Notes under the pieces: model-generated | Seen by the model: the letters and a program-made list of their open reading frames with translations, nothing else | Database searches by the model: none | Told to the model about the DNA's origin: nothing | Shown here: positions 29,761 to 64,000 of the stretch, piece after piece | Layout: every line of letters starts with the position of its first letter | How positions within the stretch are numbered: the first letter of the stretch is position 1 | Assembly (NCBI GenBank): GCA_963762255.1 | Contig: CAVXKA010000002.1 | Coordinates: 672,001 to 736,000 of the forward strand | Source: Candidatus Eiseniibacteriota bacterium | GTDB lineage: Bacteria > Eisenbacteria > RBG-16-71-46 > JABDJR01 | Reading direction: 5' to 3' | DNA: 64,000 nucleotides | Made by a program: the position numbers and the translations under genes

Positions 29761-29880
29761 CCTTTTGTGGTACAAGCGCCGGACGCAGATGATCGGCGAT
29801 CCCCCGCATGGGGGCGGCGAGGCCTAGGCCGGAGCCGTCGCGGGGGCCGCCCCGGCTCCAACGCAGGACAAGAGGCCGCC

Positions 29881-31404: not shown

Positions 31405-31413
31405 TCGGGTCGG

Positions 31414-42624: not shown

Positions 42625-42626
42625 CC

Positions 42627-43067
42627 CTACTTCGGCGCGTTTTCGGCGAAGAGCCGGCGCACCCGTCGCTCGCAGGATTGTCCGTCAGGGGACCGCAGCG
42701 CGCACGCGGCTTCCCCGCTTCGGATGTGCGCGATGATGCGCAACACGGTGTCGCGGACGCCCGCTCGCGACTCGGCGGCGACGGCGTCCGCGACCACCCC
42801 GAGACAGGTGCACACCGGAGCGTCCGCGGATTTCGGGAAGGCGGGAGAGACCAGCGCCTCCGCCGGCACCGTGGTGCTCCATGCGTCGAAGTAGCCGACC
42901 GGGCAGGCCGCGGTCCAGCAGAAGTGGGCGTCACTCGTGAACGCGCGCGCGCGTTCTTCGCCGATCTGCGCCACGAGGGTCTCCCGCTCCACCCGAACCC
43001 CCCGCGCGCCGCACTTCGGGCAGGTGGGTGCCGGCGCCTCGGGATCCTTCATGAAAGCCTTGTTCAT
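42627..43067 (-). CDS. Cys-rich metal-binding protein (CopZ Zn-binding/BFD-like [2Fe-2S] domain)
   Basis: Cysteine pattern CPKCG, FCWTAACPVGYF, VCTCLG and CALRSPDGQSC. Confidence 0.75.
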   Translation of the reverse strand: MNKAFMKDPEAPAPTCPKCGARGVRVERETLVAQIGEERARAFTSDAHFCWTAACPVGYFDAWSTTVPAEALVSPAFPKSADAPVCTCLGVVADAVAAESRAGVRDTVLRIIAHIRSGEAACALRSPDGQSCERRVRRLFAENAPK

Positions 43068-43213
43068 CGCACGAGCCCTCGTACCCGCCTCGCCCATCCG
43101 CGCGGGCGAGGAAGATAGCGCGGGGGCCAACCCGTCGCAACCGACGGCCGCCACGCAGGCGTCCATCGTGTAAGCTGGTTGCCACTTCAACCCGGAGAGA
43201 GACCCACGGCGCC

Positions 43214-45157: not shown

Positions 45158-45294
45158 GTCCGCGGTAGACCCTTGCACGGGTGGGACAGATATCCCCTCG
45201 AAGGCCTCCAAGGGGTCGTGTAGGATTTCCCGACGATCGAGAGAGAGCCCGAACGACCTTCGGAGCCTCGGATTCCCCGAACAGGGTGCCTGGC

Positions 45295-46704: not shown

Positions 46705-46728
46705 CCGCATGCCGAAGCGGGCGGATGG

Positions 46729-47751: not shown

Positions 47752-47752
47752 C

Positions 47753-48850
47753 ATGGTCAGAATCAACTTCATGGGCGACGTGATGTTCGCGGAGCTGCTG
47801 GAGACCTACCGGCGGGGCCTCGTCACCACCCTGGACCGCGAGGGAATCGATCCCTTCGAACACGCCCGGCCGGCGCTGGAGCGGGGCGACCTCAACGTCA
47901 TCAACCTCGAATGCGTCCTCAGCGATCGGTCCCGGCTCCACAAGCCGTTCGCGAACATCCTGATCTCTCCGGAGCGATACCTCAGGTTCCTGGTCGACAA
48001 CCGGATCAACGTCGTCACCACCGCCAACAACCACGCCCTCGATCACGGGATCGAGGCCTTGGGGCACTCGATCGAGCTGCTCGGATCCCATGGGATCGCG
48101 GTGATGGGCTACCAGCCGGGCGACTACTTCCAGCGCGCGCCGGTCGTCCTGGAAGTGAAGGGGCGGAAGGTCGGATTCCTCGGCTACAACATCTCCAACT
48201 TCCCCATCGATGACAAACGCAAGGTCGTCGACAGGATCAAGAGCACGATTGCAGAGTCGCGCGGTTCGGCGGACACGCTGGTCGTCTCGATGCACTGGGG
48301 GGAGGAGTACTCCAACATACCGCCCCCCTACGTCATCCGGTTCGGGCGGGAGATCCTGGACGCCGGCTGCGACATCCTGCACGGGCACCACTCGCACCAG
48401 ATCCAGGGCGTGCTGCAGGACCGGAACCGGATCTTCGCACCCAGCCTCGGCAATTTCGTGTTCGACCAGATGATCGGGCCGAACCGGATCACCGCGATCC
48501 TGAGCGTTGCCGTGGGTGAGGATTCCCTGGCCTACGAGTACCTGCCGTACTACCTCAACCGCCGCTTCCAACCCGAACCCGCCCCGAGATACGGGGCATA
48601 TATCGAGGAGATCAACCGCTATCTGGCGGAGAGCTACACAATCGGAAGCGAGGAGCGGTACGCGCAGAGAATCGCTTCTCGGGTGCGGGACGGGCACCGC
48701 CGGAACCGAATCAGGATGCGGCTCAAGATGCTGGGCCACTTCTGGACCTACCTCCCCTATCGGAAGGAGATCCAGGAGTTCCGCGCCAGGCGAATGAAGC
48801 TCTTCTCCGTGATCCACGGTGAGGAGAGCCTGCCGAAGCGCCAGCCCTAG
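47753..48850 (+). CDS. CapA/PGA_cap metallophosphoesterase-family protein
   Basis: Motifs GDVM, NLE, ANNHALDHG, HWGEE, GHHSH and SLGNFVFD. Confidence 0.9.
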   Translation: MVRINFMGDVMFAELLETYRRGLVTTLDREGIDPFEHARPALERGDLNVINLECVLSDRSRLHKPFANILISPERYLRFLVDNRINVVTTANNHALDHGIEALGHSIELLGSHGIAVMGYQPGDYFQRAPVVLEVKGRKVGFLGYNISNFPIDDKRKVVDRIKSTIAESRGSADTLVVSMHWGEEYSNIPPPYVIRFGREILDAGCDILHGHHSHQIQGVLQDRNRIFAPSLGNFVFDQMIGPNRITAILSVAVGEDSLAYEYLPYYLNRRFQPEPAPRYGAYIEEINRYLAESYTIGSEERYAQRIASRVRDGHRRNRIRMRLKMLGHFWTYLPYRKEIQEFRARRMKLFSVIHGEESLPKRQP

Positions 48851-48890
48851 TCCGGGGAGGGCCGGGCGAGAGCCGGGCCGCCGGCGCGAG

Positions 48891-49964
48891 CTACCCGCGC
48901 TTGAGCACTTCCAAGTAGATCTCCGAGGCCCGCTCGATCATCCTCGCCACCGAGAACTCCGTTTCGATCCGCTTCCGTCCGGCTTGACCCATGGCGAGCG
49001 CCTTCTCCCGGTTCGCTTCGAGCCAGAGGAGCTTCTCGACGAGGGCGTCCGCGTCGGACGGCGGGATCAGGAAACCCGTGACCCCGTCGATCACCAGCTC
49101 CCTGTTCCCTCCCTGGTCGGTGCATACCACCGGAAGGCCGGCGGCCATGTATTCCATGATGCTATTGGATAGCCCTTCACCATAGGTCGACAGGAGAACG
49201 CCTACGCGGGCGCAATCGTAGTGGTCCAAGACCTCGGGTGCGCGCCCGGGAAAGAAGAACCGGCCCGCCTCGATCATGTCCGAGGCTGAGGACACCAGAA
49301 CGTCGAAATCCGGTCCGTTCCCGAGGGCGGTGAAGATGGCGACGGATTGCCGGCCGGCCACGATCTTTCTCGCGGCTTGGACGAACATGGGGAAGTCCTT
49401 GCGATCGTCCATCGTGGCGGTCATGACGACGTGAAACGAGTCGCTGGGGTGAGTACCGCGGCCGGCACGTTCCAGGCGCTTTGGGTCGAATCCGTTGTAG
49501 AGGACCCGGCCGCGGTCGGGCGCGACGCCGAAGGCCGCCAGACCGGCCCTGCTGTTGGCGATCGTCAGGTTCCCCAGCGAGCTGGCGATCTTCAAGTGCA
49601 AGGCCCTGCGCGGCGGAATCATCCCGCGTCGAATCACGCCCGAGACATGGGGAAGCCTCCACCGCTTGCAACAGATCTCGGCCGCGAAGGACGACATCCA
49701 ACCCCAGGAATGCACGACATCGGGCTTCAGCCCGCCCATCTCGTTCCAGAGGGGGACGATTGGAGAGATGTCGAGCCGGAACTTTCGCGGGGAGATGACC
49801 AGGGGGATTCCGGCGTCCCGCAGTTCCCGTGCGAACAAGCCGCCTTCCAACGCGAAGACGGACACCTCCCACGGGTCGCGCAGGGAGGTGGCCAGAAGCG
49901 TCAACTGCCGCTCCGCGCCCCCCCCACCGAGACTGTCGCAGACCATCAGGATTCTCTTCGGCAC
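48891..49964 (-). CDS. GT4 glycosyltransferase
   Basis: Motifs GGAERQ, YNGFD and [18 protein letters not shown]. Confidence 0.9.
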
Positions 49965-50117
49965 CGGCGGAGGGTAACGCGAAGCCCTCGGCTAAGCAAC
50001 GAGGCCGACCCCGCTCGTGGTCCTGGTGGCGCCCGGGGAGAGGCTGGGCGGTCGGCCTTTTCCCGGGATGAGAAACCGGACAAATGCAGTAGTGTTTACC
50101 TACGCGGGAGGAAGCCA

Positions 50118-50726
50118 ATGGGTCGGAAGCTGGTGAGAATCTTCGGAGTGGTGGTTGTGGCCGGAGCCGCCCTGGCGCTGCTCCGAATCGTACCTGGCCG
50201 ATCAGGGGAGACGCAGATGAGCAATGAGAGCGAGAGGAACGACGCCGGCGCGAAGACGGCCAAGCCACCGAAGGATGAGCTCAAGCGCACGCTCGATCCC
50301 CTTCAGTACCAAGTCACCCAGGAGTGCGGCACCGAGCCGGCGTTCCACAATGCCTACTGGGACAACCACGAGCCCGGCATCTACGTGGATGTGGTATCGG
50401 GTGAGCCGCTCTTCAGCTCGTTGGACAAGTTCGACTCCGGAAGCGGCTGGCCGAGTTTCACGCGCCCCTTGATCCAGGAAAACGTCACCGAGCACGGGGA
50501 CGTCTCGTTCGGGATGCGGCGCACCGAGGTCCGCTCGCGGGAAGCCGACTCGCACCTCGGCCACGTCTTCGACGACGGACCCGGACCGGAGGGGCTCCGC
50601 TACTGCATCAACTCCGCGTCTCTCCGGTTCATCCCGGTGGACAGCCTGGAGGCACTGGGCTACGGAGCGTATCTCGCACTGTTCCGTGCCGACTCGGTCG
50701 GGGCGGGGCCGGACGAATCCCGGTAG
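50118..50726 (+). CDS. msrB: Peptide-methionine (R)-S-oxide reductase with N-terminal export/anchor segment
   Basis: Motifs [28 protein letters not shown] and RYCINS. GGGAGG RBS before ATG 50118; alternative start at 50217. Confidence 0.93.
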
Positions 50727-51592
50727 GTCGGGCTCGACAGCACTTCCTCGCACGTCCCCCACCGGTACTCGCGCAGCAGCGCGCGCAGCTTCCGCTCGGT
50801 CGTGTTGAGACCCACGGTGCACTTGAACCGCCGCACGAGCGGCATCGGAACGCGGGGGGCGTCCGAGGCGAAGTCGCGGGGATGAAGGTAGACAACGGTA
50901 GGCCGTCCTGCCGCAGACTCCCGGCGGATGCCGTGCCGGATGAGCGACAGCGGCAAGAGCCGCAGGTATCCACCGCCGCTATAGCAGACCCGCGCACCAC
51001 CCAGGCTCGCGACAGAGATCGGCAACTCCCGCAGGGTCCGTCCGCTGGGAGCGGTGATGGTGTGCGGCCCGCGCGGGCATGGATAGCCGCCGTGACCCCG
51101 GGGCGCCGGGAAGAGGCTCGAGTCGTAGGTCAGGCCGGCGTCCAGCAGCGTGTCGAATGCCCACTCGGTGCCGGGCGTGATCGAGAACGACGGCGCGCGA
51201 AAGCCGCGGATGACAATGCCGGGGCCGGCCGCCGCTCGGATCGCATCAAGCGACTCGCGCAGGTCCGCGGCGAACGCCGCCGGCGTCAGGTCGTAGATCT
51301 TGCGGTGCCAATACGAGTGCGTACCGATCTCGTGCCCCGCCTCCGCGATCCGGCGGATCAGCGCCGGGTGCCGCTCCGCAACCCACCCGAGCACGAAGAA
51401 CGTCGCGCGCGTTTCGTGCTCGGCGCACACGCGCAGGATCAGGTCGGTGTACCGCTCGACGATCGACGACTCGTCGCTCAAGCGCGGCCAGTCGGCCGGG
51501 TCGCGAACGGCCTCGATCTCGACCAAGTGAAACCAGTCCTCGATGTCGAACGACAGCGCGTGCATGGGCTCGGCGGGTGGGGTCGCGTTCAT
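50660..51592 (-). CDS. Polysaccharide deacetylase (DUF3473/XrtA-associated type)
   Basis: Motifs [41 protein letters not shown] and YLHP. Confidence 0.9.
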
Positions 51593-52245
51593 GGGGCGGC
51601 CGGAGCGATGTCGAGGGTCACGAAGTAGTCTCTGGCGATGCGCTCGATCCGAACACGGCCGGGGTCGTACCCGGCGAACAACTCTTTCAGATGAGCACGG
51701 CTGTACAGGAACAGATCGCACCGGTTGCGGTAGCGCACCCGGCGCTGCCAGGCGAGGAATCCCCCGGCGGCAGGAAAGCTGAACATCACGCGGCGTCGCG
51801 CCAGCGAGGCCGCGCGCTCGATGACCGTCTTCGGGTCAGCCATGTAATCCATGAACCCTGTGAGGATGACGTAGTCGAAGGTCTCCCGGAACGGGTGGGT
51901 CAAGAAGTCGCCCAGCACGAACTCGCAGGGCGGCACGACGCCCGCTTCGGTGGCGTGTCGGCGGGCGACGCCAAGCATGCCCTCCGCGAAGTCGATCCCG
52001 AGGACGCGCCCCGCGCCGCGACGGGCGAACGTGATCGCGTAATGACCCGGTCCGGTCCCGACGTCGAGGACCGAGCGCCCCGCGACCGGATCGCAGGCGG
52101 CGACGGATCTCTCGAACCTCAGGCGCACGGACTTGCGCAGGTGCCGGTTCAAGAGCCGGTTGAGGAACGTGTTCTTGTTGCCGTAGATCGCGTCAAAGTC
52201 GCCGGCGTAGGAGTCGAAGAACTCGGACACGCTCGTCTTGACCAT
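51589..52245 (-). CDS. Class I SAM-dependent methyltransferase
   Basis: Motifs VLDVGTGPG, GIDFAEGM and FDY. Confidence 0.88.
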   Translation of the reverse strand: MVKTSVSEFFDSYAGDFDAIYGNKNTFLNRLLNRHLRKSVRLRFERSVAACDPVAGRSVLDVGTGPGHYAITFARRGAGRVLGIDFAEGMLGVARRHATEAGVVPPCEFVLGDFLTHPFRETFDYVILTGFMDYMADPKTVIERAASLARRRVMFSFPAAGGFLAWQRRVRYRNRCDLFLYSRAHLKELFAGYDPGRVRIERIARDYFVTLDIAPAAP

Positions 52246-52342
52246 GGTTGCCCTTCTGCTCCTTGAGGCACAGACGCTTGAGGGATTCTAGCGCGCATGC
52301 GGCACGAAGAAGAACTCGTTCAAGTGCCGGCGTTGCCCGAGC

Positions 52343-52843
52343 CTACCTGCGCACGGGGGATTCCATCGAGCCCTTGCCGCGTCCGAGGCGGTTCACGGCT
52401 CGCTTCTGAAGCAGGTGGAAGGCGAATCCGAACACGCTTCCGACCACCAGGGACACTCCCAGGAAGGCGATGACGTCGGCCGCTCGGCCAGTGATGGTGA
52501 AGAAGAGGAACCGGATGTCGTCGGTGACAAATCGCATGCCGGTTGTGTACGAGATCGAGAAACGCACGACCCCCCACAGGAGCAGCCCGAAGACGGCGCC
52601 TATGCCAAGGGCACGGTTGGGCGTTGTCATGAAGCGTCCGAGACTCACTCCGAATAGCATTCCGATGATGCCCGAGGGAATCACGACCACGAGTCCCAAC
52701 ACCGTGGCCGGCCAGTCGGAGCGGCGGGTCATCGCGGCGACAAGCACGTGGAAGGCTGCCGCGGCCAACCCGAAGAGAATCCCGACCAGGCATCCCAGGG
52801 ACGCGCGTCTCTCGCTGCTAGCCGGGGTTGGGTCGGGCTCCAT
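52343..52843 (-). CDS. Small multi-pass membrane protein
   Basis: GAGGGGAG RBS before ATG 52843; about 4 hydrophobic helices. Confidence 0.7.
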   Translation of the reverse strand: MEPDPTPASSERRASLGCLVGILFGLAAAAFHVLVAAMTRRSDWPATVLGLVVVIPSGIIGMLFGVSLGRFMTTPNRALGIGAVFGLLLWGVVRFSISYTTGMRFVTDDIRFLFFTITGRAADVIAFLGVSLVVGSVFGFAFHLLQKRAVNRLGRGKGSMESPVRR

Positions 52844-52902: not shown

Positions 52903-53170
52903 CTACGGCAAGAACTTCTCCGGGTGCGCGAGCTTCTCCGGCAGATAGGTCTCGATCACGTAGTTGAGCCCATGCTTGGCCAGCGCCTGCTGCTCGGCGC
53001 GCACCTCCATGCGGATCAACTGCTCCAGCGCCCGCTGCCACTCACGATGGTGCTGCACGAACGGATCGTTCTTGATCGCGTCCCGCGCGCGCTTGACGTC
53101 CACATCGGTCAACGGATGCGTCGGCAGCTCGTAGTCGATGATGTCCTGCGGCGTCACCCCAAGGAACCGC
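52903..53170 (-). repeat. Orphan copy of the 3' end of the topo VI A gene (direct repeat of 63244-63510)
   Basis: 268 bp. Hand alignment gives 19 substitutions and 1 indel against 63244-63510. Encodes RFLGVTPQDII…HPEKFLP*. Confidence 0.95.
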
Positions 53171-53196
53171 CTTCGCGACAGATAGGCCGTGCGGCC

Positions 53197-54330
53197 TCAA
53201 GTCCCGGCCGCTGCCGCCAATGCCCCCTGCCGAGCCTGCACGAGGCGGAAGAAATCCCAGGTCATGAACACGTACGGGGATTCCTCGCCGCCGCGATCCT
53301 GCGGGTGCCAGACGAGGCCGAGGTGGATGTTGCGGCGCGGATGGAGCAGCAAACCCAACCCGGTACCCATGTCCTCGCGAAACGTGGCGGTGACGGAGGC
53401 GCCCAGGTAGTTCTGGCCCGAGTCGCCGGTGTAGCGCAGGTGGCCGAGCAGCTCCAGGTTCACGACCCCCTTCCCGCGGATGTCCTGCCAAGTGAGGGTG
53501 GAGAGCTCAACGCCCAACCCCGGGTGTAGCAGAATCCACTGGGCCCGGGGCGGGTGCAGGGCGTCGAAGGAGAGGACGACGCCGTTAACCAGCGATTCCC
53601 AGGGGTACTGCGAGTAGCCGCTGGTGAGGTAGTTCTCCCAGCGGGCGTCCGCGGCGACGATCTCGTGCAAGGCTACATCCTTGACGGGCAGAAGGAAGTC
53701 GTCCAGCACCGCCGCCACGGCGTCGCCGCGCAGACGCAGATCGAGTGCGGTCTCCGGCTCCACCAGCAGTCGGATACTGTCATCATCGGTGTATTCCCAC
53801 ACCGTGAACCTGTCAGTCGAGCCAGAAAAGTAGCTCAACCCTTCGAGCGGCTTGTCCGGAAGCAACGACCTATTGTTGTACCGCAGGCTGCCAGACATGA
53901 CGCTGCGGCGCTTGAGCGTCAGCTTCTGAGCCGGGCCACCGGTGGCCGCGACCGCGGCCGCGAAGTCGGTCACCACGGAATCGAAGTGGGCAGCGAATGC
54001 GGCGAAGATCGCGGGGTCAGCCTGGCTGGGGGCTGTGCCGTCGCGGTAGCGATCGGCAAGGGCCCGCAAAATGGCCAGGTAGTCATCGCGGGCGAGTTCA
54101 TCCGCGAACTCCGCAAGGATCTGCGTGCGGTAACGGGGATCCTGGTCCACGTGCGCTGCCTGCGCCCAATCCGCCACAGGGGCCGCCCAATACTGTGGCA
54201 GCAAGTCGCTCTCCGCGACGACGGTCGCCGCGTGGGTGGCGAAAGGCACGACCACTAAGAGCGCGAGCAGGAGAGCGACCCGCACGGCGCGGATCGCTTT
54301 GACATCCAACGTCATCACGCGTCCAGCCAC
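53197..54330 (-). CDS. Secreted hypothetical protein, helical N-terminal half and beta-strand-rich C-terminal half
   Basis: GGAGGGAG RBS and GTG start; signal peptide ALLLALLVVVPFATHA; 16 bp downstream of the hydrolase gene. Confidence 0.75.
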   Translation of the reverse strand: MAGRVMTLDVKAIRAVRVALLLALLVVVPFATHAATVVAESDLLPQYWAAPVADWAQAAHVDQDPRYRTQILAEFADELARDDYLAILRALADRYRDGTAPSQADPAIFAAFAAHFDSVVTDFAAAVAATGGPAQKLTLKRRSVMSGSLRYNNRSLLPDKPLEGLSYFSGSTDRFTVWEYTDDDSIRLLVEPETALDLRLRGDAVAAVLDDFLLPVKDVALHEIVAADARWENYLTSGYSQYPWESLVNGVVLSFDALHPPRAQWILLHPGLGVELSTLTWQDIRGKGVVNLELLGHLRYTGDSGQNYLGASVTATFREDMGTGLGLLLHPRRNIHLGLVWHPQDRGGEESPYVFMTWDFFRLVQARQGALAAAAGT

Positions 54331-54346
54331 AGTCTCCCTCCTCGAC

Positions 54347-55420
54347 TCAGGGCCGGTTCTCGATTACGCGCTTGATCTCCTCAATGATCTTGCGCGCCTG
54401 CGCCAGGACCTTGAATAGCTGCTCGAGTGACGAGTCTTCCGCAAGCTGGCCAAGAAGCGCACGCAGTTCAGCCAGTTGATCCTGCAACGCCGGGATCGGC
54501 GCGAAGTCGCCGCCGAACTGCGGGTAGCTTGCGCTGTCCACAGCCGCGCGCATCTGGGCGCGGGTGATCGCGCTGCCACCCATGACGCGGTTGAGCAGCG
54601 GGATGTGGACCCTCGGATGGTCGAGATAGTGCGTGAGCCCGTGGATGTTCCACTGGCGGTAGTGAAAGAGATCCTCGTGGAGAAAGTAACGCCCTTGAAA
54701 GTGCACGGGAGCGAAGCGGCGCACGACGAGGCAGGGATCCAGTTCGTGTCGGAAATCGAAGAACGCGGAGCACAGCGAACTCTTGCTCTCATTGGGCCCG
54801 GGGCGCACGAACGAGTCGTAGGCGGGGAAATCCGTCTGCAGCAGCCGACTGACGTTGGCGAGCATGAAGATGCTGTCAAGTCGAGCTTGCGGCGGCCGGA
54901 ACGGTCCGGCCCCGCCCAGCGGCTGGGTGGCCATCACCTGCAGAGCGTCGTGCGCGACCGCGGTTCCGAGGCTATGCGCCAGGACGGTGCAGCGGCCGAG
55001 GTCCCAGCCGGCATGATCCTTGACGCCCTGGACAATCTGCCGCACGACCGAGGCGCGGATGCGCTCCTGGTAGAGATTGAAAAAGCGGTAGATCACCACG
55101 TCGGCCAGGTGCGACCAGAAGAACGGCGGGTGTTCGGCGGCGATGCCATCGAGCCAGCCGAGAGTGCCGCCTAGCTTGATCTGCTGCTGCGACGCGAACT
55201 GCGACACCGCGCCCGCACCATCCTGCCACTGCTTGAGGACGTTGCACAGGATGTCGTCGTAGTTGACCGGCACGACCGTCACGTCGGCCGGCCAGCCCGA
55301 GTCCTTGAACGTGGGGTAGCGCCGACTGATCTCGTCGAGCTTCTGCTTGACCTCGTCGAGCCAGGTATCGGCTTCATGCACTCCCATACCGTGGACGACG
55401 AAGAGCACATGTCGGGCCAT
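54347..55420 (-). CDS. Alpha/beta-hydrolase (lipase-like)
   Basis: Oxyanion motif VVHGMG, nucleophile elbow LAHSLGT, C-terminal amphipathic helix. GGGAGG RBS. Confidence 0.8.
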   Translation of the reverse strand: MARHVLFVVHGMGVHEADTWLDEVKQKLDEISRRYPTFKDSGWPADVTVVPVNYDDILCNVLKQWQDGAGAVSQFASQQQIKLGGTLGWLDGIAAEHPPFFWSHLADVVIYRFFNLYQERIRASVVRQIVQGVKDHAGWDLGRCTVLAHSLGTAVAHDALQVMATQPLGGAGPFRPPQARLDSIFMLANVSRLLQTDFPAYDSFVRPGPNESKSSLCSAFFDFRHELDPCLVVRRFAPVHFQGRYFLHEDLFHYRQWNIHGLTHYLDHPRVHIPLLNRVMGGSAITRAQMRAAVDSASYPQFGGDFAPIPALQDQLAELRALLGQLAEDSSLEQLFKVLAQARKIIEEIKRVIENRP

Positions 55421-55485
55421 AACACCTCCCTCGCACGCTGTTGACCGTCGAGAGGTCGATTCACGGTGCGGGAGCTATTAAGCGA

Positions 55486-55515
55486 AGCATAGGGAAATCC
55501 CCAAAACGCTGTCAA
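55486..55515 (-). promoter_or_regulatory. Sigma70-like promoter for the hydrolase and secreted-protein pair
   Basis: TTGACA-N18-TATGCT on the minus strand. The spacer contains the inverted repeat GGGA-AA-TCCC. Confidence 0.6.
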
Positions 55516-55705
55516 TCACAAGACCCACGTGCCAAGTTGTCGACGGCGGCGGGTCGGTAACCGGTCGAACCGGTGTCATTTCTCCGGATCCGTCAAGGGT
55601 GGGGTAGAATCCCCTACGCGTTCCTGCGACTCGCGGACCCTGCTGCGGCGCGCCTGGTGCGTTCACTTGCGGGGACCGACCAACCCCCGACACGGAGGAC
55701 GCGTC

Positions 55706-57844
55706 ATGCGTATCGATCCATCCTTCGTCATCCTCGAATCCGGCCAGAACGTGGAGGATGCGCTCGGCGCCGTACCTCCGGGTGGATCCGTCCACTACGT
55801 TGTCATCCGACGCGAGTTGGGCGACAGCGTCTTCTGGTACACGATCCGCGTCGACGCCTTCCTGCGGCGGATCGCGAACCACCCCGTAAGGCAGCCGATC
55901 GAGGTCGCACTCGAGCTCCATGAACGCGACGCTGTCCCGGTCCATCCCGAGGGCGCGACGGAGGGCGACAGCTACCGTCCTGGCGCGGTAGTGATAAGCC
56001 CTCGTGGTCGCGTGATGGGTGTTCTGGAGATGGTGTACCTCGCGCCGCCACCCACTGCCGAGGCGCCGCGGAGAAACCGCAGGTTCCGCGACCTCTTGAG
56101 GTTTGGTCGGCCCAAGGAGAGGCGGGGCGAAGCAGGGGCGCCTCCCGATGAATCCGTGCACGCTCCCGGAGAGTACATGGATGCCGGCCCGAAGGCGATG
56201 CCGCCGGCGGCCGACGAGCGTCCAGCGACCACTGCAGCCCCTCCCCCCACCACACCGACCGCTCCCGAGAAGCGGGCGTTCCAGGCATGGCCCGACCTCG
56301 GCGCGCCGGTCGTGGTAGAGGAACACCAAATCTTCGATCTCGTCATTGGCTTTGCGCGAAGCGCGCGTGCGGACGTGTCCGGCGGTCCGGTGGTGCTCGA
56401 CTTGGCCCCGCCCGAGTTCGACCTTCACATCCAGGTGGCCGCGGCGGGATTCGACGCCCCGGAGGGCTGGACCCGCATGCTGCACGTGGTGCGCGACAAT
56501 CCATGGTCGGCGCACGTGACGGTGGAGCTCGTGGCCACCGACGGCATCGCAAGGAGCGAGGTGCGCTCGATCACGGTCCTGTTTCACTTCGAGGGGCAGC
56601 TATGTGGTCAGGCGCGTCGCAAGGTGGTCGTGGTGCCGCAGGGCACGGCCATCGACTCCGCGACGCCGATGGCGGCGGACGTTGCGGCGAAGCCCAGTAC
56701 CACGGGTGTGCCGGTGAGGGTGAAGCCGGGGCTCAGGGCCCCCGACCTTACCGCCACCATCCAGCTCACCACCGGGCGCGCCTCGCGCGAGGTCTTCCTC
56801 TGGACGTTTGAATCCCCGCACTCCGTCGCACTGCCTGAGACGCCGGCGACCACCGAATTCGATACCGGCGTCGGCGCTTACGTGGACAGCGTGCTGCAGC
56901 AACTGGTAGCTCTCTCAGGCGAGCCGACCGCGGATAATCAGATGCGCGGGATAGGTCGGCAAATCGCGCGTCGCATGCCGGCGGCCTTCTGGTCGGTGTT
57001 GAAACAGGTGAGCCAGATCACCGCCGGCGCGGGCCGCGCCCCAGACGTGCTGCTCGTGACCGAAGAGACCCGCCTGCCCTGGGAGCTGGCGTGGATGCCC
57101 GAACCGCTCGATCCAGCACGCGCGGCGCACCTCGGGGCGCAGGTCAATCTCGGCCGCTGGATCCTCGGAGACTCCGGCCCCGCACTTCCTCCCGAGGATC
57201 GGCTGCCTTACCGCAACATCGTCGTGGTAGTGGGAAACTACCCGAAGGGCGCCGGGGTGGCGGCGCTGCCCGACGCGGTGGCCGAAGCCGACTGGCTGAA
57301 GCAGAAGGAGCAGTCACGCGCCACAGTAATCGAGATGGAGGGCACCGAACTTGACTCATTCCTCGAGGGCGAGGTGCCGGTCGCGGGCTGCGAGTTGATC
57401 CACTTTGCCTGTCACGGCCGCTCGAAGACGGGCGCGCCCGCGGAGACCCACCTCGTGATGCAGGGCGGGCAGACGTTTACGCCGCAGGTACTCGAGGGCT
57501 CGGAGATCGGCGCCAAGTGGGCTCCGCTTCTGTTCCTGAACGCGTGCGAGGTGGGCCGCGCGGGCGTGGCGCTCGGCGAGACCGCGGGCTTTGCGGGCGC
57601 CGCGCTTTACCAAGGATGCCGCGCGTTTGTTGGCCCGCTGTGGCAGGTGCAGAGCGACGTCGCGCGCGAGATAGCCGAAGCGTTCTACACGGGCGCGCTT
57701 GCCGGCGAGCCGATCGCGGCGGTGTTGCGCGACATCCGCGCGAAGTACATCTACAGCGGTCCCGGCAGTCCGCCGTCTCCCGACACGTATCTCGCCTATG
57801 TCTACTACGGCCATCCTGCGCTCCGACTGGAGTGCCAGCCCTGA
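55706..57844 (+). CDS. CHAT (caspase-like) protease with CBS-like N-terminus, Pro-rich linker and Ig-like (TCAD7-like) middle domain
   Basis: Motifs LPWEL, IHFACHG, LFLNACEVG, FVGPLW and AYVYYG. GGAGG RBS. Confidence 0.88.
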   Translation: MRIDPSFVILESGQNVEDALGAVPPGGSVHYVVIRRELGDSVFWYTIRVDAFLRRIANHPVRQPIEVALELHERDAVPVHPEGATEGDSYRPGAVVISPRGRVMGVLEMVYLAPPPTAEAPRRNRRFRDLLRFGRPKERRGEAGAPPDESVHAPGEYMDAGPKAMPPAADERPATTAAPPPTTPTAPEKRAFQAWPDLGAPVVVEEHQIFDLVIGFARSARADVSGGPVVLDLAPPEFDLHIQVAAAGFDAPEGWTRMLHVVRDNPWSAHVTVELVATDGIARSEVRSITVLFHFEGQLCGQARRKVVVVPQGTAIDSATPMAADVAAKPSTTGVPVRVKPGLRAPDLTATIQLTTGRASREVFLWTFESPHSVALPETPATTEFDTGVGAYVDSVLQQLVALSGEPTADNQMRGIGRQIARRMPAAFWSVLKQVSQITAGAGRAPDVLLVTEETRLPWELAWMPEPLDPARAAHLGAQVNLGRWILGDSGPALPPEDRLPYRNIVVVVGNYPKGAGVAALPDAVAEADWLKQKEQSRATVIEMEGTELDSFLEGEVPVAGCELIHFACHGRSKTGAPAETHLVMQGGQTFTPQVLEGSEIGAKWAPLLFLNACEVGRAGVALGETAGFAGAALYQGCRAFVGPLWQVQSDVAREIAEAFYTGALAGEPIAAVLRDIRAKYIYSGPGSPPSPDTYLAYVYYGHPALRLECQP

Positions 57845-57860
57845 ACGAGGAGGAACTTCC

Positions 57861-59375
57861 ATGAGTGAATTCGAGCTTCTCTCCGGCGCATCCCCGATCG
57901 AGCTGGGCCCAGGCTGGACGCTGCGCGCTCCGGGCTTCTCCGGGCGCGGCGCATTCGAGCTGGCGGCACGCGGCGCGCGCCGCGCACCGGGGAGCCCGGA
58001 CCTCGGGTTGCTCGACGATGTGGTTGCCCGGCTGGCGATGACCGAGCGCGCCGTCGCCGTGCTCGATCTCGAGCCGGAGCCTGCGACGGATCCCTGGCGA
58101 CGCGGGATCGGCCAGGAGCCACCCGCCATTGAGTTCGAGACGCCCGAGCCTCCAGAGGGGTTCGAGCAGGTGATTCTGGCGGTGGACGAGGGCTCGATTG
58201 TCTCGTGGCACATTGGCGAGACACACGTCGCAACCGATGACCGCCGCGGTGCGACCGCCATGCGTCACTACCGCGTGCCGGCACGTAGGGTCTCGCCCAC
58301 CCCACCCGGCGCGGACCGGCGCGGGCTGTTCTCGGTGATCGCTCGGAAGGTGCTCAAGGTGCTGGTGTTCCCCATCACGGATTTCGTGGTGGGGGAAATC
58401 GGTCGCGGCGTGGCGCGCCTGTGGGAGAGCGGCCACGCCCCCTATGGGGTGCGCACCTTCGAGCCTGGCAACTTCAAGGCTGCGAACGTGGGCGCGTTCG
58501 GCGACCCTGACTGGCGGAGGATCGCCGGGGGCCCTGCGCTGCTCTTCGTCCACGGCACATTCAGTACCGCGCATGGCTGCTTCAGCCGCATGAACCCGCA
58601 GGCCCTTGCCGAGCTAGGCACCCGCTATGGCGGACGGACGTTCGCGTTCAACCACTGGACGCTGTCGCACGACCCACGTGAGAACGTGAAATGGCTGATC
58701 GGGCAGATTCCGCAGGGGCCTGCGCTTGATGTGGACATCGTCTGCCACAGCCGTGGCGGGCTGGTCGCCCGCACACTCGCGCATGCACTCGACGAGCTGG
58801 GGGGAGCGGGCCGAGTGCGGGTGGGACGCATCGTGTTCGTCGCCACCCCCAACGACGGAACGCGGCTAGCACAGGCCGACCACATGGTGAACATGCTTGA
58901 CCGCTATACGAACGTGGTGCAGTTCCTTCCCGACGGCCCGATCGAGATCGTGCTGGAAGGCGTGGTGACGGCGGTGAAGACGCTGGCCCACGCGGGTCTC
59001 AGCCACCTGCCCGGGCTCGCGGCGCAGGATCCCGGTAGCCGGTTCCTCGATTGGCTACGTGAGAAAGACACGGCCGGCACCGAGTACTACGCGCTAGCCG
59101 CTGACTGGGAGCCGAACGTCGGTCCGCTGTGGGACCTTGTGAAGCAGGAGATCGCGGACCGGATCATGGATGGCGTGTTCCAGAACGAGAAGAACGACCT
59201 GGTTGTGCCGACGCTCGGCGTCGGCCAAGCGCTGCGCGGGAAAGGGTTCCCCGTGGAGAATGCGCGGCAATTCACGTTTCCGCCGAACGCGGGCGTCACG
59301 CACACCAGCTTCTTCGGCGATCCATCGACCGCCGACCGCCTGCTCGAGTGGCTCACGCCGCGCGGCGGATCTTGA
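57861..59375 (+). CDS. Alpha/beta-hydrolase (PGAP1/lipase-like) with extra N-terminal domain
   Basis: Motifs LFVHGTFS, CHSRGGL, ATPNDGT, NDLVVP and H(TSFF). GAGGAGG RBS; 16 bp after the CHAT gene. Confidence 0.88.
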   Translation: MSEFELLSGASPIELGPGWTLRAPGFSGRGAFELAARGARRAPGSPDLGLLDDVVARLAMTERAVAVLDLEPEPATDPWRRGIGQEPPAIEFETPEPPEGFEQVILAVDEGSIVSWHIGETHVATDDRRGATAMRHYRVPARRVSPTPPGADRRGLFSVIARKVLKVLVFPITDFVVGEIGRGVARLWESGHAPYGVRTFEPGNFKAANVGAFGDPDWRRIAGGPALLFVHGTFSTAHGCFSRMNPQALAELGTRYGGRTFAFNHWTLSHDPRENVKWLIGQIPQGPALDVDIVCHSRGGLVARTLAHALDELGGAGRVRVGRIVFVATPNDGTRLAQADHMVNMLDRYTNVVQFLPDGPIEIVLEGVVTAVKTLAHAGLSHLPGLAAQDPGSRFLDWLREKDTAGTEYYALAADWEPNVGPLWDLVKQEIADRIMDGVFQNEKNDLVVPTLGVGQALRGKGFPVENARQFTFPPNAGVTHTSFFGDPSTADRLLEWLTPRGGS

Positions 59376-59500
59376 ACGGGGCGGAGGAGCGCCCGAGGGT
59401 CTGTGGCCGCCGTGACACTCGCCTCACCGACCGCGGCGAGGACGCGATAGAATCCCACACGCGCTCAGCCTCCTTCCAGCCGCAAACCGGAGTTGCCAAC

Positions 59501-62500
59501 ATGCCCGAGCAAACGACTCTTCACATCCGCGAACGTGCCGCCGGTCCGGGGAGGCACGCTATCGGGCTCACCTTACAGCGTCCCGGGCAGGCGGATATCG
59601 GGGCGGAGGCGAACATCGAATTCGCGCTCACCCCGCAGGAGCACGAGGAGCTGCGCTGGTATCTGGAGGACTACCTGCTGCGGCCGGAGGCGATCCAAGA
59701 GGTTCAAATCGAGCAGATCGAAGCATGGATGCAACGATGGGGCAAAGAATTGTACACGAAGGTCCTGGCTGCCAACATGAACACACAGGCCATCTGGTTT
59801 GCGGTGCGCGAACAGTTGGCCAACCTGCGAGTTGAAATCTCTGCGGGCATCGCGGAAGCCGCTTCCATTCCTTGGGAGCTGATGCGGGATCCCCAGTCCG
59901 ACTCACCCATCGCCCTTCGTGTTCGATCGTTCGTGCGCGTCCAGTCGAACCCAAACCTCAGTTTCGTCCCCGTGCCATCGGCCGACGAAGGACGCATCCG
60001 CCTGCTGTACGTCGTATGCCGGCCAGCCGGGATTGAAGACGTTGAGCTGCGGGTTGTGGCCAACCGGCTCTTGCAGGATGCAGGCAAGGATCTCACTCGC
60101 TTCGACATCACCGCCCTCCGGCCACCCACGTTCGAGCAACTGCAAAGAGTGCTGAGCGACGCCAATACCGCCGGGCGCCCGTACCACATCGTCCACTTCG
60201 ATGGGCACGGCGTCTACGAGGACCTGAGCAAGACCCCCCTGGCTGACTGGTTGAGAGCCATCAACGCCCTGACGCTGGGAGGCAGTAGGGCGGGCAAGCA
60301 CGGCTACCTACTGTTCGAACATCCCAGCAGCGAGCACAAGATGCGCCCCGTGACTGGGGACGAACTTGGCAAGTTGCTCCACGACACGGGCGTGCCCGTA
60401 CTGGTGCTGAACGCCTGCCAATCCGCCATGCACCAAGCCGGGACTGATCCGGACGGGGCGGGCCTGGCCAGCAACGCCCACGATGAAATCCGGGCCATCG
60501 GTTCGCTGACCCAAGCCGTCATCGACCAGGGTATCCCTGCCGTCCTCGGCATGCGATACAGCGTCTTTGTCGTCACCGCGGCCCAGTACGTTGGCCAGCT
60601 CTACGCCGCATTGGCCAAAGGCCGCCCCTTCGGCGAGGCGGCCAGCGAGGCTCGCAAGCACCTGGCTCGCAACCCGGACCGATGGATAGGTCTGCAGCCT
60701 CGCCCGCTGCAGGATTGGTTTGTCCCGGTAGTCTACGAAGCAGCCCCGATCCGGCTGCTGCCGCAAGAGACGGCTTTCGAAGGCGGCGAGCAGCCGGAAC
60801 TCGACCCAGTCCAGAATGACCCTTCACTGCTGCGCTACGTGCCCGACACCGGCTTCGTCGGCCGCGACGAAACGCTGCTGATGCTCGACCGCGCCTTCGA
60901 CGCCCACCCTGTTGTGCTACTGCACGCCTATGCCGGGCAGGGCAAGACCGCCACCGCAGTTGAATTCGCCCGCTGGTATGCCCGAACAGGCGGCCTCGGC
61001 CCGCGGCCTCTTGTTCTGTTCACTTCCTTCGAGCATCCCATCGACCTCGACGATGTCTTGAACCAGATCGGGCAGCGCACCGTCCAGGACTGGAGCGCGA
61101 TCAACGAGAGTCACGAGAAGCGCTCACGTGTAGTCCAACTGCTCCGGCAAGTTCCCTTGCTGTGGATCTGGGACAACGTGGAACCCGTCGCTGGCTTCCC
61201 GGCCGGGACCGAATCCGCCCGAGCGCCAGAGGAACAGGCCGAGCTGGCCGCCTTCTTGAAGCAGGTCAAGCTGGACCCGGCTACAAGAGCCAAGATCCTG
61301 CTGACCAGTCGCCGGGACGAGCAAGCGTGGCTGGGCGGCATCCCGCACCGGGTTCCCATGCCCCACATGACCGCTGCGGACGCCGCCCACTTGGCGGTGC
61401 AAATCGGTGCCGAACGGGAGCTGGACCGAAGCCAAGTCGCGCAGTGGCAACCTCTGCTGGACTACTGTGCCGGCAATCCGCTGACGCTGCGGATCATCGC
61501 TGGACAGGCTGTGCAGTTGGGCCTGCGAGACCGGGATCAGGTTGCAGCCTTCATCCAGGCGGTGCGAGACGGCGAGCAGCGCATCGAAGACGTCAACACA
61601 GCCGAGGGCCGGGACCGTTCGCTGGGCGCCTCGCTCGACTACGGCTTCCGCAACACCTTTGAGGCTAATGAGCTGTCCATCATCGCCCTGCTGCACCTAT
61701 TCCAGGGCACCGTGGATGTGGATACCCTCGCGTCGATGGGCGAAGCGAGCGACCATGCCCTGCCCGAACTCGAGGAGAGGACCAAGGAACACCTGACGAG
61801 CGTGCTCGACCGGGCACGGGACACCGGCCTGCTGACCTATCTGGGCGGAACGTCCTATGGAATCCACCCGGCTCTACCATGGTTCCTCCGTCAGTTGTTC
61901 GCCCAGCATTACGACGGACAGCAAGGCCGCTCGACCGCCACCCTCCGGGCTTGGGTCGAGGCCGTTGGCGCAATGGGCGAGCAGTACCAACGGCAGTTCA
62001 GCCGAGGCAACCAAGACGTCATCCAAAACCTCGCCTTGGAAGAAGCCAACCTGCTGCACGCCCGTCGCACCGCTCGCCGCCACGGTTGGTGGCAATCCGT
62101 GATTGCCGCCATGCAGGGCCTGCGAACCCTCTGCAAGTACCAAGGCCGGACGTCCGAATGGTCCCGGTTGGTGGCGGAAATCACCCCCGACTACTGCACC
62201 CTCGACGACGCCCCCATGCCCGGCCGTGAAGGTGAATTCACCGTGGTCATGAGCTACCGAGTTGACCTGGCCCAGGGACACTACCGAGACCTCGCCCAAG
62301 CTGCCTCCCTGCAGGCGAAAGTGACGGCCTGGGACCGCCAGCAAGCCGCCCCCGTCCTCGCCCTCCCCAACGACACCCCCCTGGACCCCTACCAGCGCCA
62401 CCTTGTCCACACCTTAGGCGCCAGCGTGTTCGCCCTTGCCCAAATCCTCATGGAGCAGGGCAACCCGGACTGCGTAGCAGCGTACGAGGAATCCATTCAG

Positions 62501-63157
62501 CATATGCAGCGAATCCAGGACACATCCACTGAAGCCATTGCTCACTACAACCTCGGACACGCCTTCATGGAAGTCCCCGCCATCCGCGACCTAGACGCCG
62601 CCGAGACCGCCTACCAGCGAAGCATGGCCTTGCGAGACACGATGGATGCCTTGGGTCGTTCCGCGAGCATCAAGCAGGTCGGTATGGTCCACCATGCAAG
62701 ATTCTCCGAATCCCGTCGGCGACAAGAGCCGGTGGCGACCATGCGGAAGCACGCCCAGGCAGCGGAGCAGCACTACCACCGGGCTCTCGCACTCTGCCCC
62801 CCCACCGCTCTCCCCCACCTAGGCCCCTTCCACCACCAGTTGGGCCTTCTCTACAGGAACGTCGGCCTGACCGAGCAAGCCCGAGAGCACTACGAGAAGG
62901 CCGTCCAGTACTTCGAGCGCACCGGCAACCGCCACAGTGCAGGCAAGACTCGCTTCAACATCGCCATCATGTACCTCAGCGCTGCGGAACGAGAGACCAC
63001 CGCGTCCCGTCAGATAGACCTCCTGCGCCGCGCGCAGGCCTACGCCCAGGCCGCCCTGCGCGACTTCAAGCACTACCAAGGCCGCGCCAGCGCAGAGGAA
63101 ACCGGAGCCCAGCGTCTCATCGACCATATCGCCGAAGCCCTCGATCAGCACACTTAG
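59501..63157 (+). CDS. CHAT-STAND(NB-ARC-like)-TPR protein, NLR-like protease (1218 aa)
   Basis: CHAT motifs IPWEL, VHFDGHG and VLNAC. NTPase motifs FVGR, Walker A YAGQGKT, Walker B IWDNVE, LTSR and GNPL. C-terminal TPRs. Confidence 0.9.
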   Translation: MPEQTTLHIRERAAGPGRHAIGLTLQRPGQADIGAEANIEFALTPQEHEELRWYLEDYLLRPEAIQEVQIEQIEAWMQRWGKELYTKVLAANMNTQAIWFAVREQLANLRVEISAGIAEAASIPWELMRDPQSDSPIALRVRSFVRVQSNPNLSFVPVPSADEGRIRLLYVVCRPAGIEDVELRVVANRLLQDAGKDLTRFDITALRPPTFEQLQRVLSDANTAGRPYHIVHFDGHGVYEDLSKTPLADWLRAINALTLGGSRAGKHGYLLFEHPSSEHKMRPVTGDELGKLLHDTGVPVLVLNACQSAMHQAGTDPDGAGLASNAHDEIRAIGSLTQAVIDQGIPAVLGMRYSVFVVTAAQYVGQLYAALAKGRPFGEAASEARKHLARNPDRWIGLQPRPLQDWFVPVVYEAAPIRLLPQETAFEGGEQPELDPVQNDPSLLRYVPDTGFVGRDETLLMLDRAFDAHPVVLLHAYAGQGKTATAVEFARWYARTGGLGPRPLVLFTSFEHPIDLDDVLNQIGQRTVQDWSAINESHEKRSRVVQLLRQVPLLWIWDNVEPVAGFPAGTESARAPEEQAELAAFLKQVKLDPATRAKILLTSRRDEQAWLGGIPHRVPMPHMTAADAAHLAVQIGAERELDRSQVAQWQPLLDYCAGNPLTLRIIAGQAVQLGLRDRDQVAAFIQAVRDGEQRIEDVNTAEGRDRSLGASLDYGFRNTFEANELSIIALLHLFQGTVDVDTLASMGEASDHALPELEERTKEHLTSVLDRARDTGLLTYLGGTSYGIHPALPWFLRQLFAQHYDGQQGRSTATLRAWVEAVGAMGEQYQRQFSRGNQDVIQNLALEEANLLHARRTARRHGWWQSVIAAMQGLRTLCKYQGRTSEWSRLVAEITPDYCTLDDAPMPGREGEFTVVMSYRVDLAQGHYRDLAQAASLQAKVTAWDRQQAAPVLALPNDTPLDPYQRHLVHTLGASVFALAQILMEQGNPDCVAAYEESIQHMQRIQDTSTEAIAHYNLGHAFMEVPAIRDLDAAETAYQRSMALRDTMDALGRSASIKQVGMVHHARFSESRRRQEPVATMRKHAQAAEQHYHRALALCPPTALPHLGPFHHQLGLLYRNVGLTEQAREHYEKAVQYFERTGNRHSAGKTRFNIAIMYLSAAERETTASRQIDLLRRAQAYAQAALRDFKHYQGRASAEETGAQRLIDHIAEALDQHT

Positions 63158-63243
63158 CAGCCGGCTGTGGCGCTTGAGGATGACGTTCAAGACCTCCGCC
63201 GGGGGCCTTGCGGGGGCGCGAGCCGGTTTGCGCGTGGTGCGAC

Positions 63244-64000
63244 CTACGGCAAGAACTTCTCCGGGTGCGCCAGCTTCTCCGGCAGGTAGGTCTCGATCAC
63301 GTAGTTGAGCCCGTGCTTGGCCAGCGCCTGCTGCTCGGCGCGCACCCCCATGCGGATCAGCTGCTCGAGCGCCCGCTGCCACTCGCGTGGTGCTGGACGA
63401 ACGGGTCGTTCTTGAGCGCGTCCTGCGCGCGCTTGACGTCCACGTCCTTCAGCGGGTGCGTCGGCAGCTCGTAGTCGATGATGTCCTGCGGCGTGACGCC
63501 GAGGAACCGCGCCTGCGGCACGCAGAAGAACTCGTTCAGGTGCGCGGCGTTGCCCGAGCCGACCTTGAGCGTGCGGTAGATGTTCATGAAGCCGTAGGGG
63601 TCGCCGTCGACGAAGACGTAGACCGGGATCTTCTTCTCGTCGGCCAGCCGGCGGATGAAGCGCCGGCACGCGCGCGTCGGCACGCCGCCCATCGACACCA
63701 GGATGCAGTTGGCCTCGTGCCAGTAGTTGTGCTTGACCAGCCGCTGGAACATGCCGGCGGTCTCGATGACGAGGATGAACTTCGCCTTGGTCTCGAACTC
63801 GAGGTGCTCGACCGAGATCGGGATCGAATAGGCGCCGCTGCCGAACTTCGTGCAGTCGATGCGCAGCGTCTTGCCGGTGTCGCGGTCGCGGTCGATGACC
63901 ACGAGCTGGCCGGCCACCTCGCCGCCCTTCTCCTCGGGGATGAAGCCGAGCTGCTCGCGGTTCACCGCGAAGAGCGCCTCCACGTCGTCCATCACCGTGT
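63244..64000 (-). CDS. top6A: DNA topoisomerase VI subunit A (Spo11-like), 5' end beyond the window; apparent 1-nt deletion near 63387
   Basis: TOPRIM motifs VIETAGMFQRL, GGVPTRACRRF, FVDGDPYG and LGVTPQDI…EQQAL. The paralogous tail at 52903-53170 has the missing base. Confidence 0.88.
   Translation of the reverse strand, partial: HGDGRRGGALRGEPRAARLHPRGEGRRGGRPARGHRPRPRHRQDAAHRLHEVRQRRLFDPDLGRAPRVRDQGEVHPRHRDRRHVPAAGQAQLLARGQLHPGVDGRRADARVPALHPPAGRREEDPGLRLRRRRPLRLHEHLPHAQGRLGQRRAPERVLLRAAGAVPRRHAAGHHRLRAADAPAEGRGRQARAGRAQERPVRPAPREWQRALEQLIRMGVRAEQQALAKHGLNYVIETYLPEKLAHPEKFLP

Follow-up and report, generated by a model that had tools for sequence, protein, structure and literature searches.

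A duplicated tail of the topoisomerase VI A gene bounds a recombinase-less island in a Candidatus Eiseniibacteriota genome

In the paper by Kirchberger et al. (2017; PMC5361080), orphaned 3' regions in rhs, contact-dependent inhibition (CDI) and type VI secretion system (T6SS) effector-immunity loci are explained by C-terminal displacement, for which homology-facilitated illegitimate recombination is proposed; Jackson et al. (2009) and de Vries and Wackernagel (2002) are among the works it cites. Here we describe a comparable arrangement at top6A, the gene for the A subunit of topoisomerase VI, in a 64,000-nucleotide stretch of DNA (the window) from a Candidatus Eiseniibacteriota bacterium (assembly GCA_963762255.1, contig CAVXKA010000002.1; G000:C2:672001-736000 in our numbering, where G000 is the genome, 4.14 Mb in 3 contigs). 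The end of top6A occurs there twice, around a 10-kb insert that encodes no recombinase, and our tentative reading is that the repeat was left behind when the 3' tail was displaced without an integrase, with top6A homology as the anchor.

The likeness to the rhs, CDI and T6SS orphans lies in a conserved 5' anchor that has a new 3' end and cargo, in older 3' fragments that lie downstream in the same orientation, in the absence of an encoded recombinase and in repeated events at one locus. In those loci the displaced parts are variable toxin tips with their immunity genes, and the break falls at the boundary between conserved and variable sequence. At top6A, in contrast, the gene encodes a housekeeping topoisomerase subunit, the tails are 92% identical and of ortholog type, the cargo is unrelated to the gene, and two junctions coincide within 3 nt for no evident reason. 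What would be new here is the working of the 3'-tail displacement logic of rhs and T6SS loci on a housekeeping gene. Among the literature matches listed for top6A as an integration site, none carries the term 'topoisomerase VI', though such reports may exist.

Cis-mobilizable elements (CIMEs), as ICEberg 2.0 defines them (PMC6323972), have lost their integration and transfer genes, keep attL and attR and undergo tandem accretion; like the top6A island they are integrase-less islands between direct repeats at the 3' end of a protein gene, possibly with remnants of multiple elements. They adjoin or derive from integrase-bearing integrative and conjugative elements at the same att site and have short repeats, whereas a look at 86 top6A loci turned up no element of that sort nearby, and our repeat measures 268 nt. 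CIMEs and tandem accretion are exemplified at fda in Streptococcus thermophilus. In Escherichia coli, prophage e14 or phage 21 replaces the 3' end of icd with a slightly different last ~165 nt, so that there too the inserted DNA brings its own copy of the tail of a housekeeping gene; icd stays whole and the displaced tail lies on the far side. Prophage e14, however, encodes its integrase beside the site, while at top6A there is no integrase and a frameshift disrupts the attached tail. Minimal mobile elements and gene-flux hot spots, on which Saunders and Snyder in 2002 and Oliveira et al. in 2017 reportedly wrote, are said to be swapped by flanking homologous recombination. They share with our locus varied cargo between the same two conserved genes (0, 1.7, 3.4, 7.3 and 43.8 kb here) and a lack of mobility genes, but theirs is a two-sided exchange that leaves no duplicated tail, and the tails described here need a one-sided or single-crossover event.

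Two diverged tails and a third fragment

The top6A gene is on the minus strand and its body crosses the window end (63511..64000, with the 5' part reaching to ~G000:C2:736446; Pfam matches TP6A_N, Topo_VI_alpha and Toprim on L006:358-1446); the genes upstream of it on that strand are a cyclase-family gene and top6B, the latter an intact 563-aa open reading frame (ORF). The closest named top6A proteins are from Candidatus Eisenbacteria and Acidobacteriota metagenome bins, and the best of 7,879 homologs compared are 86-88% identical in protein. We call the gene-attached tail T, the distal tail T', a top6A fragment past the small gene G U', the source segment of that fragment U, the insert end that adjoins T' X, and the sequence beyond U', on the methyltransferase side, R. 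Numbers beginning with G denote genomes of the phylum (G000 and 205 others, 206 in all, which both the class-level and the phylum-level tail searches cover).

A repeat search gave two adjoining families, 52900-53046 with 63241-63387 (95% identity, spacing 10341) and 53048-53170 with 63388-63510 (90%, spacing 10340), which are one direct repeat of ~268 nt with a single 1-nt indel. By this search and Pfam, T is the final 267 nt of top6A (63244..63510, minus strand) and T' a displaced copy of the final 268 nt (52903..53170, minus strand; gene nt 936-1202), in frame; both have the stop codon. They are identical at 245 of 265 aligned bases, and their homology stops at ...AGGAACCGC at 53170 / 63510. 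An earlier note, made from the letters of the window alone, had reported a direct duplication of the final ~268 bp of top6A with its stop, ~10.3 kb apart, and an abrupt end of homology at 53170/63510, and both observations are borne out by the repeat search and alignment. Because a search of window positions 63100-64000 against the whole genome returned just the region itself, T' (92%), a 57-nt piece at 52292-52348 and two further matches of 23-28 nt near the E-value cut-off, the repeat is not a dispersed family. The decayed full-length top6A paralog that the note had entertained as an alternative is not seen; two fragments alone exist. The unbroken 84-codon frame of T' matches Toprim positions 95-170 of 170 (Pfam, E 5.6e-20).

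The differences between the tails are mostly silent: a comparison of 87 codons counts 14.5 as synonymous and 4.5 as non-synonymous (dS 0.29, dN 0.023, dN/dS 0.079; binomial p for the synonymous excess 4e-6). Only four amino acids differ (T/K, R/Q, I/L and E/G), each state occurs in other top6A genes, and T' carries the states of the same-genus genome G001. On the stretch shared with G001, T' is identical to it at 164/176 positions and T at 156/175, the two tails agreeing at 158/175; at the 17 comparable differing sites G001 agrees with T' at 11, with T at 4 and with neither at 2, and the T'-like sites are spread over the whole length without a single switch point. A motif, HHREWQRALEQLIRM, is common to T, T' and G001 and absent from the other tails printed (45 homologs), so that both tails come from G001's genus-level group. 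Since their divergence took place under purifying selection and their states are shared with other top6A genes, T and T' are not in-situ duplicates; they are orthologs from two related lineages, xenologous to one another, which diverged inside working genes and were later joined. In-situ duplication with subsequent decay of an untranslated copy would not leave such a pattern. A donor and recipient assignment by sliding comparison along top6A (12 windows) was dropped, the signal being too noisy.

It is the attached tail that is broken. T has a 1-nt deletion at 63387/63388 (tail residue H37) that shifts the frame into a premature TGA at 63357-63359, and the Toprim match of the attached gene falls into two pieces in different frames (positions 1-131 and 120-170 of the 170 in the profile). 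The earlier note had likened the locus to elements that restore their target gene and leave a displaced tail; the displaced tail is there, and the gene is not cleanly restored. Relatives' Top6A proteins are 66-87% identical up to about residue 354, and 26 of the 27 that matched (40 searched) align only to residue 354-357 of 362, the exception being G033, whose top6A is split across two contigs. As the lost base lies outside any homopolymer and long ORFs close by are intact, we lean towards a genuine change.

We note that lesions of several other genomes also fall in the last ~160 nt of top6A: a 1-nt insertion in G051 (L068), ~15 nt beyond the position of the G000 frameshift; a 66-nt deletion in G188 (L069); and in G001 (L008) a fusion of top6A to a truncated convergent ORF, 83 nt ahead of the stop. 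G021, G038 and G051 are other few-contig assemblies of the phylum with indels in the top6A tail. The clustered lesions point either to a dispensable C-terminus of ~47 residues or to a fragile stretch.

Beyond T' lies the third piece, U', a decayed 81-nt fragment in gene orientation (52292..52372, minus strand; gene nt 853-938) that aligns over 86 columns at 81% (E 2.9e-14) to U, the top6A segment directly 5' of T (63508..63593, minus strand). Its 57-nt core (52292-52348) is a 91-95% copy of 63508-63565 in the repeat search and scores 89 against a shuffle maximum of 32; a weak 30-nt signal for a longer homology was later confirmed by the 86-column alignment in a sensitive search. On the top6A sequence U' ends where T' begins (nt 936-938), the two overlapping by the 3 nt GCG. 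The 57-nt core of U' bears three disabling changes, a 1-nt deletion and the replacements Cys->Phe and Gln->His at residues invariant in all tails shown, while T' has no unique disabling change in 267 nt; U' is probably the older orphan. Between the two lies G (P0003; 52343..52843, minus strand), an orphan gene for a hydrophobic, membrane-type 166-aa protein (GC at third positions, GC3, 0.81), whose last ~10 codons and stop are within top6A-derived sequence, the stop 4 nt inside U'. The order on the gene strand is thus top6A (...U-T), insert, X|T', 55 nt, G, U'|R and a methyltransferase gene, and both X|T' (53170/53171) and U'|R (52292/52291) lie within 3 nt of one top6A coordinate, nt 936-938. 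GCG is common to both junctions; X ends in ...AAGGCG and the top6A counterpart in ...CAGGCGCG.

Recombinases, relatives and tails elsewhere

The repeats bound an insert in which there are no integration or transfer genes. None of the five island ORFs is a recombinase in Pfam, PADLOC, NCBIfam or PHROGs, and although the genome as a whole has PF00589 matches at 13 places (10 above the cut-off) and PF00239 matches at 4, none is within C2:672-736 kb, in agreement with the earlier note's statement that no integrase or transposase lies between the copies. Profiles built from the tyrosine and serine recombinases of G000 itself matched 0 of 4,775 ORFs from 86 top6A loci, and as a control they recovered in G000 six overlapping tyrosine recombinase ORFs, at five places, together with one serine place, all outside the build; no integrase-bearing element was found beside top6A in any of the 86 related loci.

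The 10-kb insert forms the top6A-proximal end of a 43.8-kb lineage-specific zone (19471-63243), because the ORFs of that zone are without counterparts in the top6A-downstream regions of six relatives, save for some weak matches of the glycosyltransferase type and a single further one at 27-34% identity. Methyltransferase, polysaccharide deacetylase, MsrB and glycosyltransferase genes are among those in its older part (19471..52291; Pfam). Next to it is a deoxyhypusine-synthase-like gene (17809..19470, plus strand; Pfam DS 6e-69), the ancestral convergent neighbour of top6A, which is 79% identical over 397 codons to the gene directly after the top6A stop in G007, and from which synteny with relatives runs leftwards. 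Within genus g4, the convergent conserved gene follows top6A at +38/+50 nt (about 38-55) in G007, and the conserved block begins at +1.77 kb in G004 and +3.43 kb in G006; parts of it lie at ~+7.3 kb in G003 (genus g3). None of these four genomes has a second top6A tail. The spot between top6A and the deoxyhypusine-synthase-like gene is thus a hot spot that took up DNA repeatedly, 43.8 kb in G000 and 0-7.3 kb in the relatives.

An empty site in which top6A is followed directly by G, which the earlier note had suggested looking for among relatives, was not found: in the phylum's 205 other genomes G has chance-level matches alone (E 0.002-0.008), and a metagenome scan gave 367 pattern matches of which 0 were confirmed. 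An empty site does exist, with the deoxyhypusine-synthase-like gene and not G after top6A. G001 shares with window positions 46000-64000 only top6A (88%) and one weak 270-nt match, and it provides no empty site because its top6A contig ends 400 nt past the fusion to the convergent ORF.

The tail is present in 88 of the 206 phylum genomes and has a separate second copy only in G000, other double matches being adjacent frame splits (G051, G188 and G038) or contig ends (G005 and G203). The G203 bin has two differing top6A 3' regions, C134:6640-6891 and C11:3-176 (L070 and L071), both at contig ends, which may be a strain mixture or another duplicated tail.

Outside the phylum set, three of 80 metagenome loci fetched with the G000 Top6A protein (75-84% identity) have a second partial tail on the same strand: L105, with a 152-nt repeat 5.55 kb apart, and L115 and L116, with a ~155-nt repeat 2.69 kb apart whose displaced copy has three indels. 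The three loci stand for two independent lineages, since L115 matches L116 at 100% over 11,762 nt. In L115 the displaced tail begins at tail residue H36 and in L105 at W40, ~115-130 nt further 3' than the nt 936-938 of G000; like T' and U', these tails lie downstream of top6A on the gene strand. No further case came from comparing each of 106 loci with itself at the DNA level (six genomes are represented twice, and 52 loci extend 2 kb or more downstream); four other rows are 23-32-nt matches taken as chance. The L105 insert has unknown ORFs only, and Pfam finds no recombinase among them. In the region L115:11095-15203 (the same in L116) the 2.7-kb insert encodes an MT-A70 DNA methyltransferase and two unknown ORFs, again with no recombinase by Pfam, and is possibly a restriction-modification set; a Schlafen AlbA_2 / HATPase_c_4 gene lies just past its displaced tail.

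Proposed displacement of the tail and competing explanations

The earlier note had proposed insertion at top6A, either by a recombinase acting in trans or by a single crossover; the insertion stands, and as its mechanism we prefer host recombination with an illegitimate join, a preference held at somewhat less than probable. DNA would have entered from a related lineage in which top6A was followed by CHAT/TCAD7 genes and the P0002-P0001 gene pair (the cargo described below), and would have paired with the resident chromosome, the conserved top6A sequence serving as the anchor. Its non-homologous far end, past P0001, would then have been joined illegitimately, perhaps through microhomology, within the resident top6A at gene nt ~936. 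The incoming T and 10 kb of cargo would thereby have replaced the resident gene up to nt ~936, and the resident final 268 nt (T') would have been shifted downstream as an orphan; U' would most simply be an older orphan of an earlier event at the same spot. There is no room for att arms at the insert ends, because only 27 nt separate the P0001 stop from T' and 86 nt the top6A stop from the convergent gene, and tail duplications with other breakpoints in other lineages favour host recombination over a dedicated att site. The xenologous tails, the absence of a recombinase here and at 86 related loci, the variable hot spot of the relatives and the mosaic cargo also agree with this model.

Several observations weigh against displacement by such joins. 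The order T'-G-U' is a circular permutation of U'T'-G, which a single simple displacement would not give, and at least two events are needed because U' is more decayed than T'; that all three disabling changes should fall in U' by chance has, by our own calculation, a probability of (57/321)^3 = 0.006. By our estimate, random illegitimate joins would coincide as closely as X|T' and U'|R do in ~1-2% of cases, so that the model can account for the coordinate shared by U' and T' only by assuming a local breakage hot spot; the coincidence suggests a defined site or one complex event. The displaced tails of L105 and L115 start ~12 nt apart, both within ~10 nt of the T frameshift at H37, a clustering of breakpoints that random joins do not predict. 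The frameshift is in the attached T and not in the displaced T'. None of the relatives compared shows the pre-event state, the best top6A homologs having 86-88% protein identity. The model therefore leaves unexplained the coordinate common to X|T' and U'|R, the clustered breakpoints elsewhere and the broken attached tail.

Some of these features are better accommodated by site-specific integration with tandem accretion, a serious rival that we nevertheless consider unlikely on balance. Here top6A nt ~936-938 would be an att core and the recombinase would be encoded elsewhere or lost; an older small element with a U'|T' attP and G as cargo, and a newer 10-kb element with an X|T attP, would both have inserted at the core with replacement tails, both now being integrase-less and CIME-like, and U'|R would stem from an aberrant recombinase-made deletion or a secondary site. 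Three junctions (U|T, which is intact, X|T' and U'|R) indeed share a coordinate within 3 nt, T'-G-U' is the order of a circle opened at that coordinate, and the greater decay of U' fits a never-translated P-arm beside a tail that serves as gene end; any of the 10 tyrosine (above the Pfam cut-off) and 4 serine recombinase places in the genome could act in trans, and the definition of CIMEs (PMC6323972) fits as well. However, no recombinase gene stands beside top6A in the 86 related loci, a separate second tail occurs in 0 of 86 other top6A-bearing genomes of the phylum, and two other lineages break ~115-130 nt further 3' and not at nt 936-938. The junction itself has no inverted repeat of 7-nt arms with no more than 1 mismatch and a spacer of 6-8 nt (the window as a whole has such a pattern about every 121 nt) and no unusual single-strand fold (z-scores of -0.6 to +0.7 against shuffles), and the reconstructed target X.R is unlike the top6A site, its score being equalled by 78% of random 50-mers. 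A 268-nt block of identity and arms that overlap coding sequence are, moreover, unusual for att sites.

A further and quite unlikely reading would give the top6A 3' end two docking points, one at nt ~936-938 and one at ~nt 1050-1065 (H36-W40), which sequence-directed machinery would reuse in unrelated lineages to insert recombinase-less accessory or defence islands with a replacement tail. Candidates for it are a recombinase or a nuclease that acts in trans and a break hot spot that arises from convergent transcription, and the frameshift in the G000 T would be the scar of the second point's use.

A Campbell-type single crossover appears distinctly improbable. It would need a circle with a 268-nt top6A 3' fragment and 10 kb, either a self-ligated donor fragment or an excised circle, integrated by RecA within the tail, with X|T' as its closure point. 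The structure of top6A body, U, T, insert and X|T' is exactly what such a crossover gives, no recombinase is present, and recombination between direct tails would naturally yield circles of this kind; about 25-30 nt is usually taken as the minimum for RecA pairing, which the repeat exceeds. The expected mosaic of donor and recipient is not seen, however, T' agreeing with G001 at 11 of 17 sites without a switch point; U' and its end at the closure point are left unexplained, and it is hard to see how a 10-kb circle that lacks replication and transfer genes would arrive.

An assembly artefact, in which the assembler merged either two strains or a chromosome with a free 10-kb circle, the top6A tail being common to both, and the T frameshift is a consensus error, is hardly credible: although this is a 3-contig metagenome-type assembly and the few-contig assemblies G051, G021 and G038 likewise have top6A-tail indels, X|T' and U'|R are unique adjacencies and thus, by our reasoning, beyond the reach of a repeat mis-join, the copies are 7.5% apart and so separable in long reads, intact long ORFs (1342, 771 and 563 aa) indicate a low rate of indel error, the T deletion is not in a homopolymer, and two assemblies from other samples have a like structure.

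Cargo of the insert and possible meaning of the tails

The insert (53171..63243, 10.07 kb) has five genes in two modules, according to the ORF list, a GC3 frame plot and Pfam; the reading frames are backed by third-position GC. Nearest T' is P0001 (53197..54330, minus strand), a 377-aa protein with a signal-peptide-like hydrophobic N-terminus and no family match. It has three homologs of 32-40% identity among 5.8 billion proteins and was found in 0 of the 205 other genomes of the phylum, and its C-terminus is 7-15 residues shorter than theirs. The P0001 stop is 27 nt from T', the TGA being followed by nine codons and then T' in the same reading frame. As P0001 is shorter than its homologs, the insert may end within the former 3' end of the P0001 gene. 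Directly upstream is P0002 (54347..55420, minus strand; 357 aa), without a family hit, whose HSLGT motif suggests an alpha/beta-hydrolase. A P0002 gene stands directly upstream of the P0001 homolog in all seven loci examined (L072-L078; four from Planctomycetota, two from Gemmatimonadota and one from a gammaproteobacterium), making this a conserved two-gene module that is not found elsewhere in this phylum. All seven are without CHAT genes, so the insert is itself a mosaic.

The second module is a plus-strand cluster of three genes that encode a protein with TCAD7 and CHAT protease domains (55529..57844; Pfam TCAD7 6.3e-12, CHAT 1.4e-20), a DUF7379 protein (57699..59375; Pfam 1.9e-51) and a protein with CHAT, AAA_16-like NTPase and TPR regions (59129..63157; CHAT 1.6e-19, TPR_12 2.1e-09, AAA_16 0.0023, the last below the cut-off). 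These coordinates are those of the longest ORFs (1342 and 771 aa for the two CHAT genes, both intact), which overlap by 146 and 247 nt, so the true starts are probably internal: possibly later for the TCAD7 gene and probably later for the DUF7379 gene, which overlaps both neighbours. The CHAT/TPR gene is convergent with top6A, their stops 86 nt apart. The cluster, with its two CHAT domains, TCAD7, DUF7379 and TPR repeats, matches no PADLOC model, and searches of six proteins with PADLOC, NCBIfam and PHROGs gave no hit save one PHROG of unknown function at E 0.00095. Domains of TCAD/CHAT type reportedly mark conflict systems, a view said to be that of Kaur et al. in 2020; of the traits of CHAT conflict systems, TCAD7 and CHAT are found here and the NTPase match is only sub-threshold (AAA_16).

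Two other candidates at the T'-G-U' region were set aside. A bulged inverted repeat seen by eye at the junction is not significant, and the idea that the 879-nt T'-G-U' unit is an integron cassette fails, since its junction regions fold no better than shuffles, unlike an attC site, which is an imperfect palindrome with RYYYAAC ... GTTRRRY boxes that folds as a single strand. The attC-like repeats that G000 does have look quite unlike the T'-G-U' junctions. They form an array at G000:C1:1538871-1556030 in which 17 or more copies of ~100 nt (82-97% alike, spaced 0.5-2.6 kb) start with ...TCTAAC and end with ...GTTAG-type boxes, like the attC sites of chromosomal integrons; a tyrosine-recombinase fragment lies just upstream (C1:1537589-1538311), and smaller groups of the repeat are at C1:835004-841500, C1:486056-490585 and C2:1157257-1157636.

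Were the rival of site-specific integration true, top6A would be a new kind of attachment site, for elements that depend wholly on a recombinase encoded elsewhere. If instead the tails record displacement, these loci would be natural footprints of one-sided, homology-anchored capture of foreign DNA, a process that, in the papers considered here, laboratory transformation experiments have mainly demonstrated and that is inferred at toxin loci. The target of such capture would then be a housekeeping gene of Candidatus Eisenbacteria-like bacteria that are known from metagenomes only, where the orphaned tails would serve as a datable record of acquisition, and gene sets of the conflict or defence type would spread between related species without the machinery of mobile elements.

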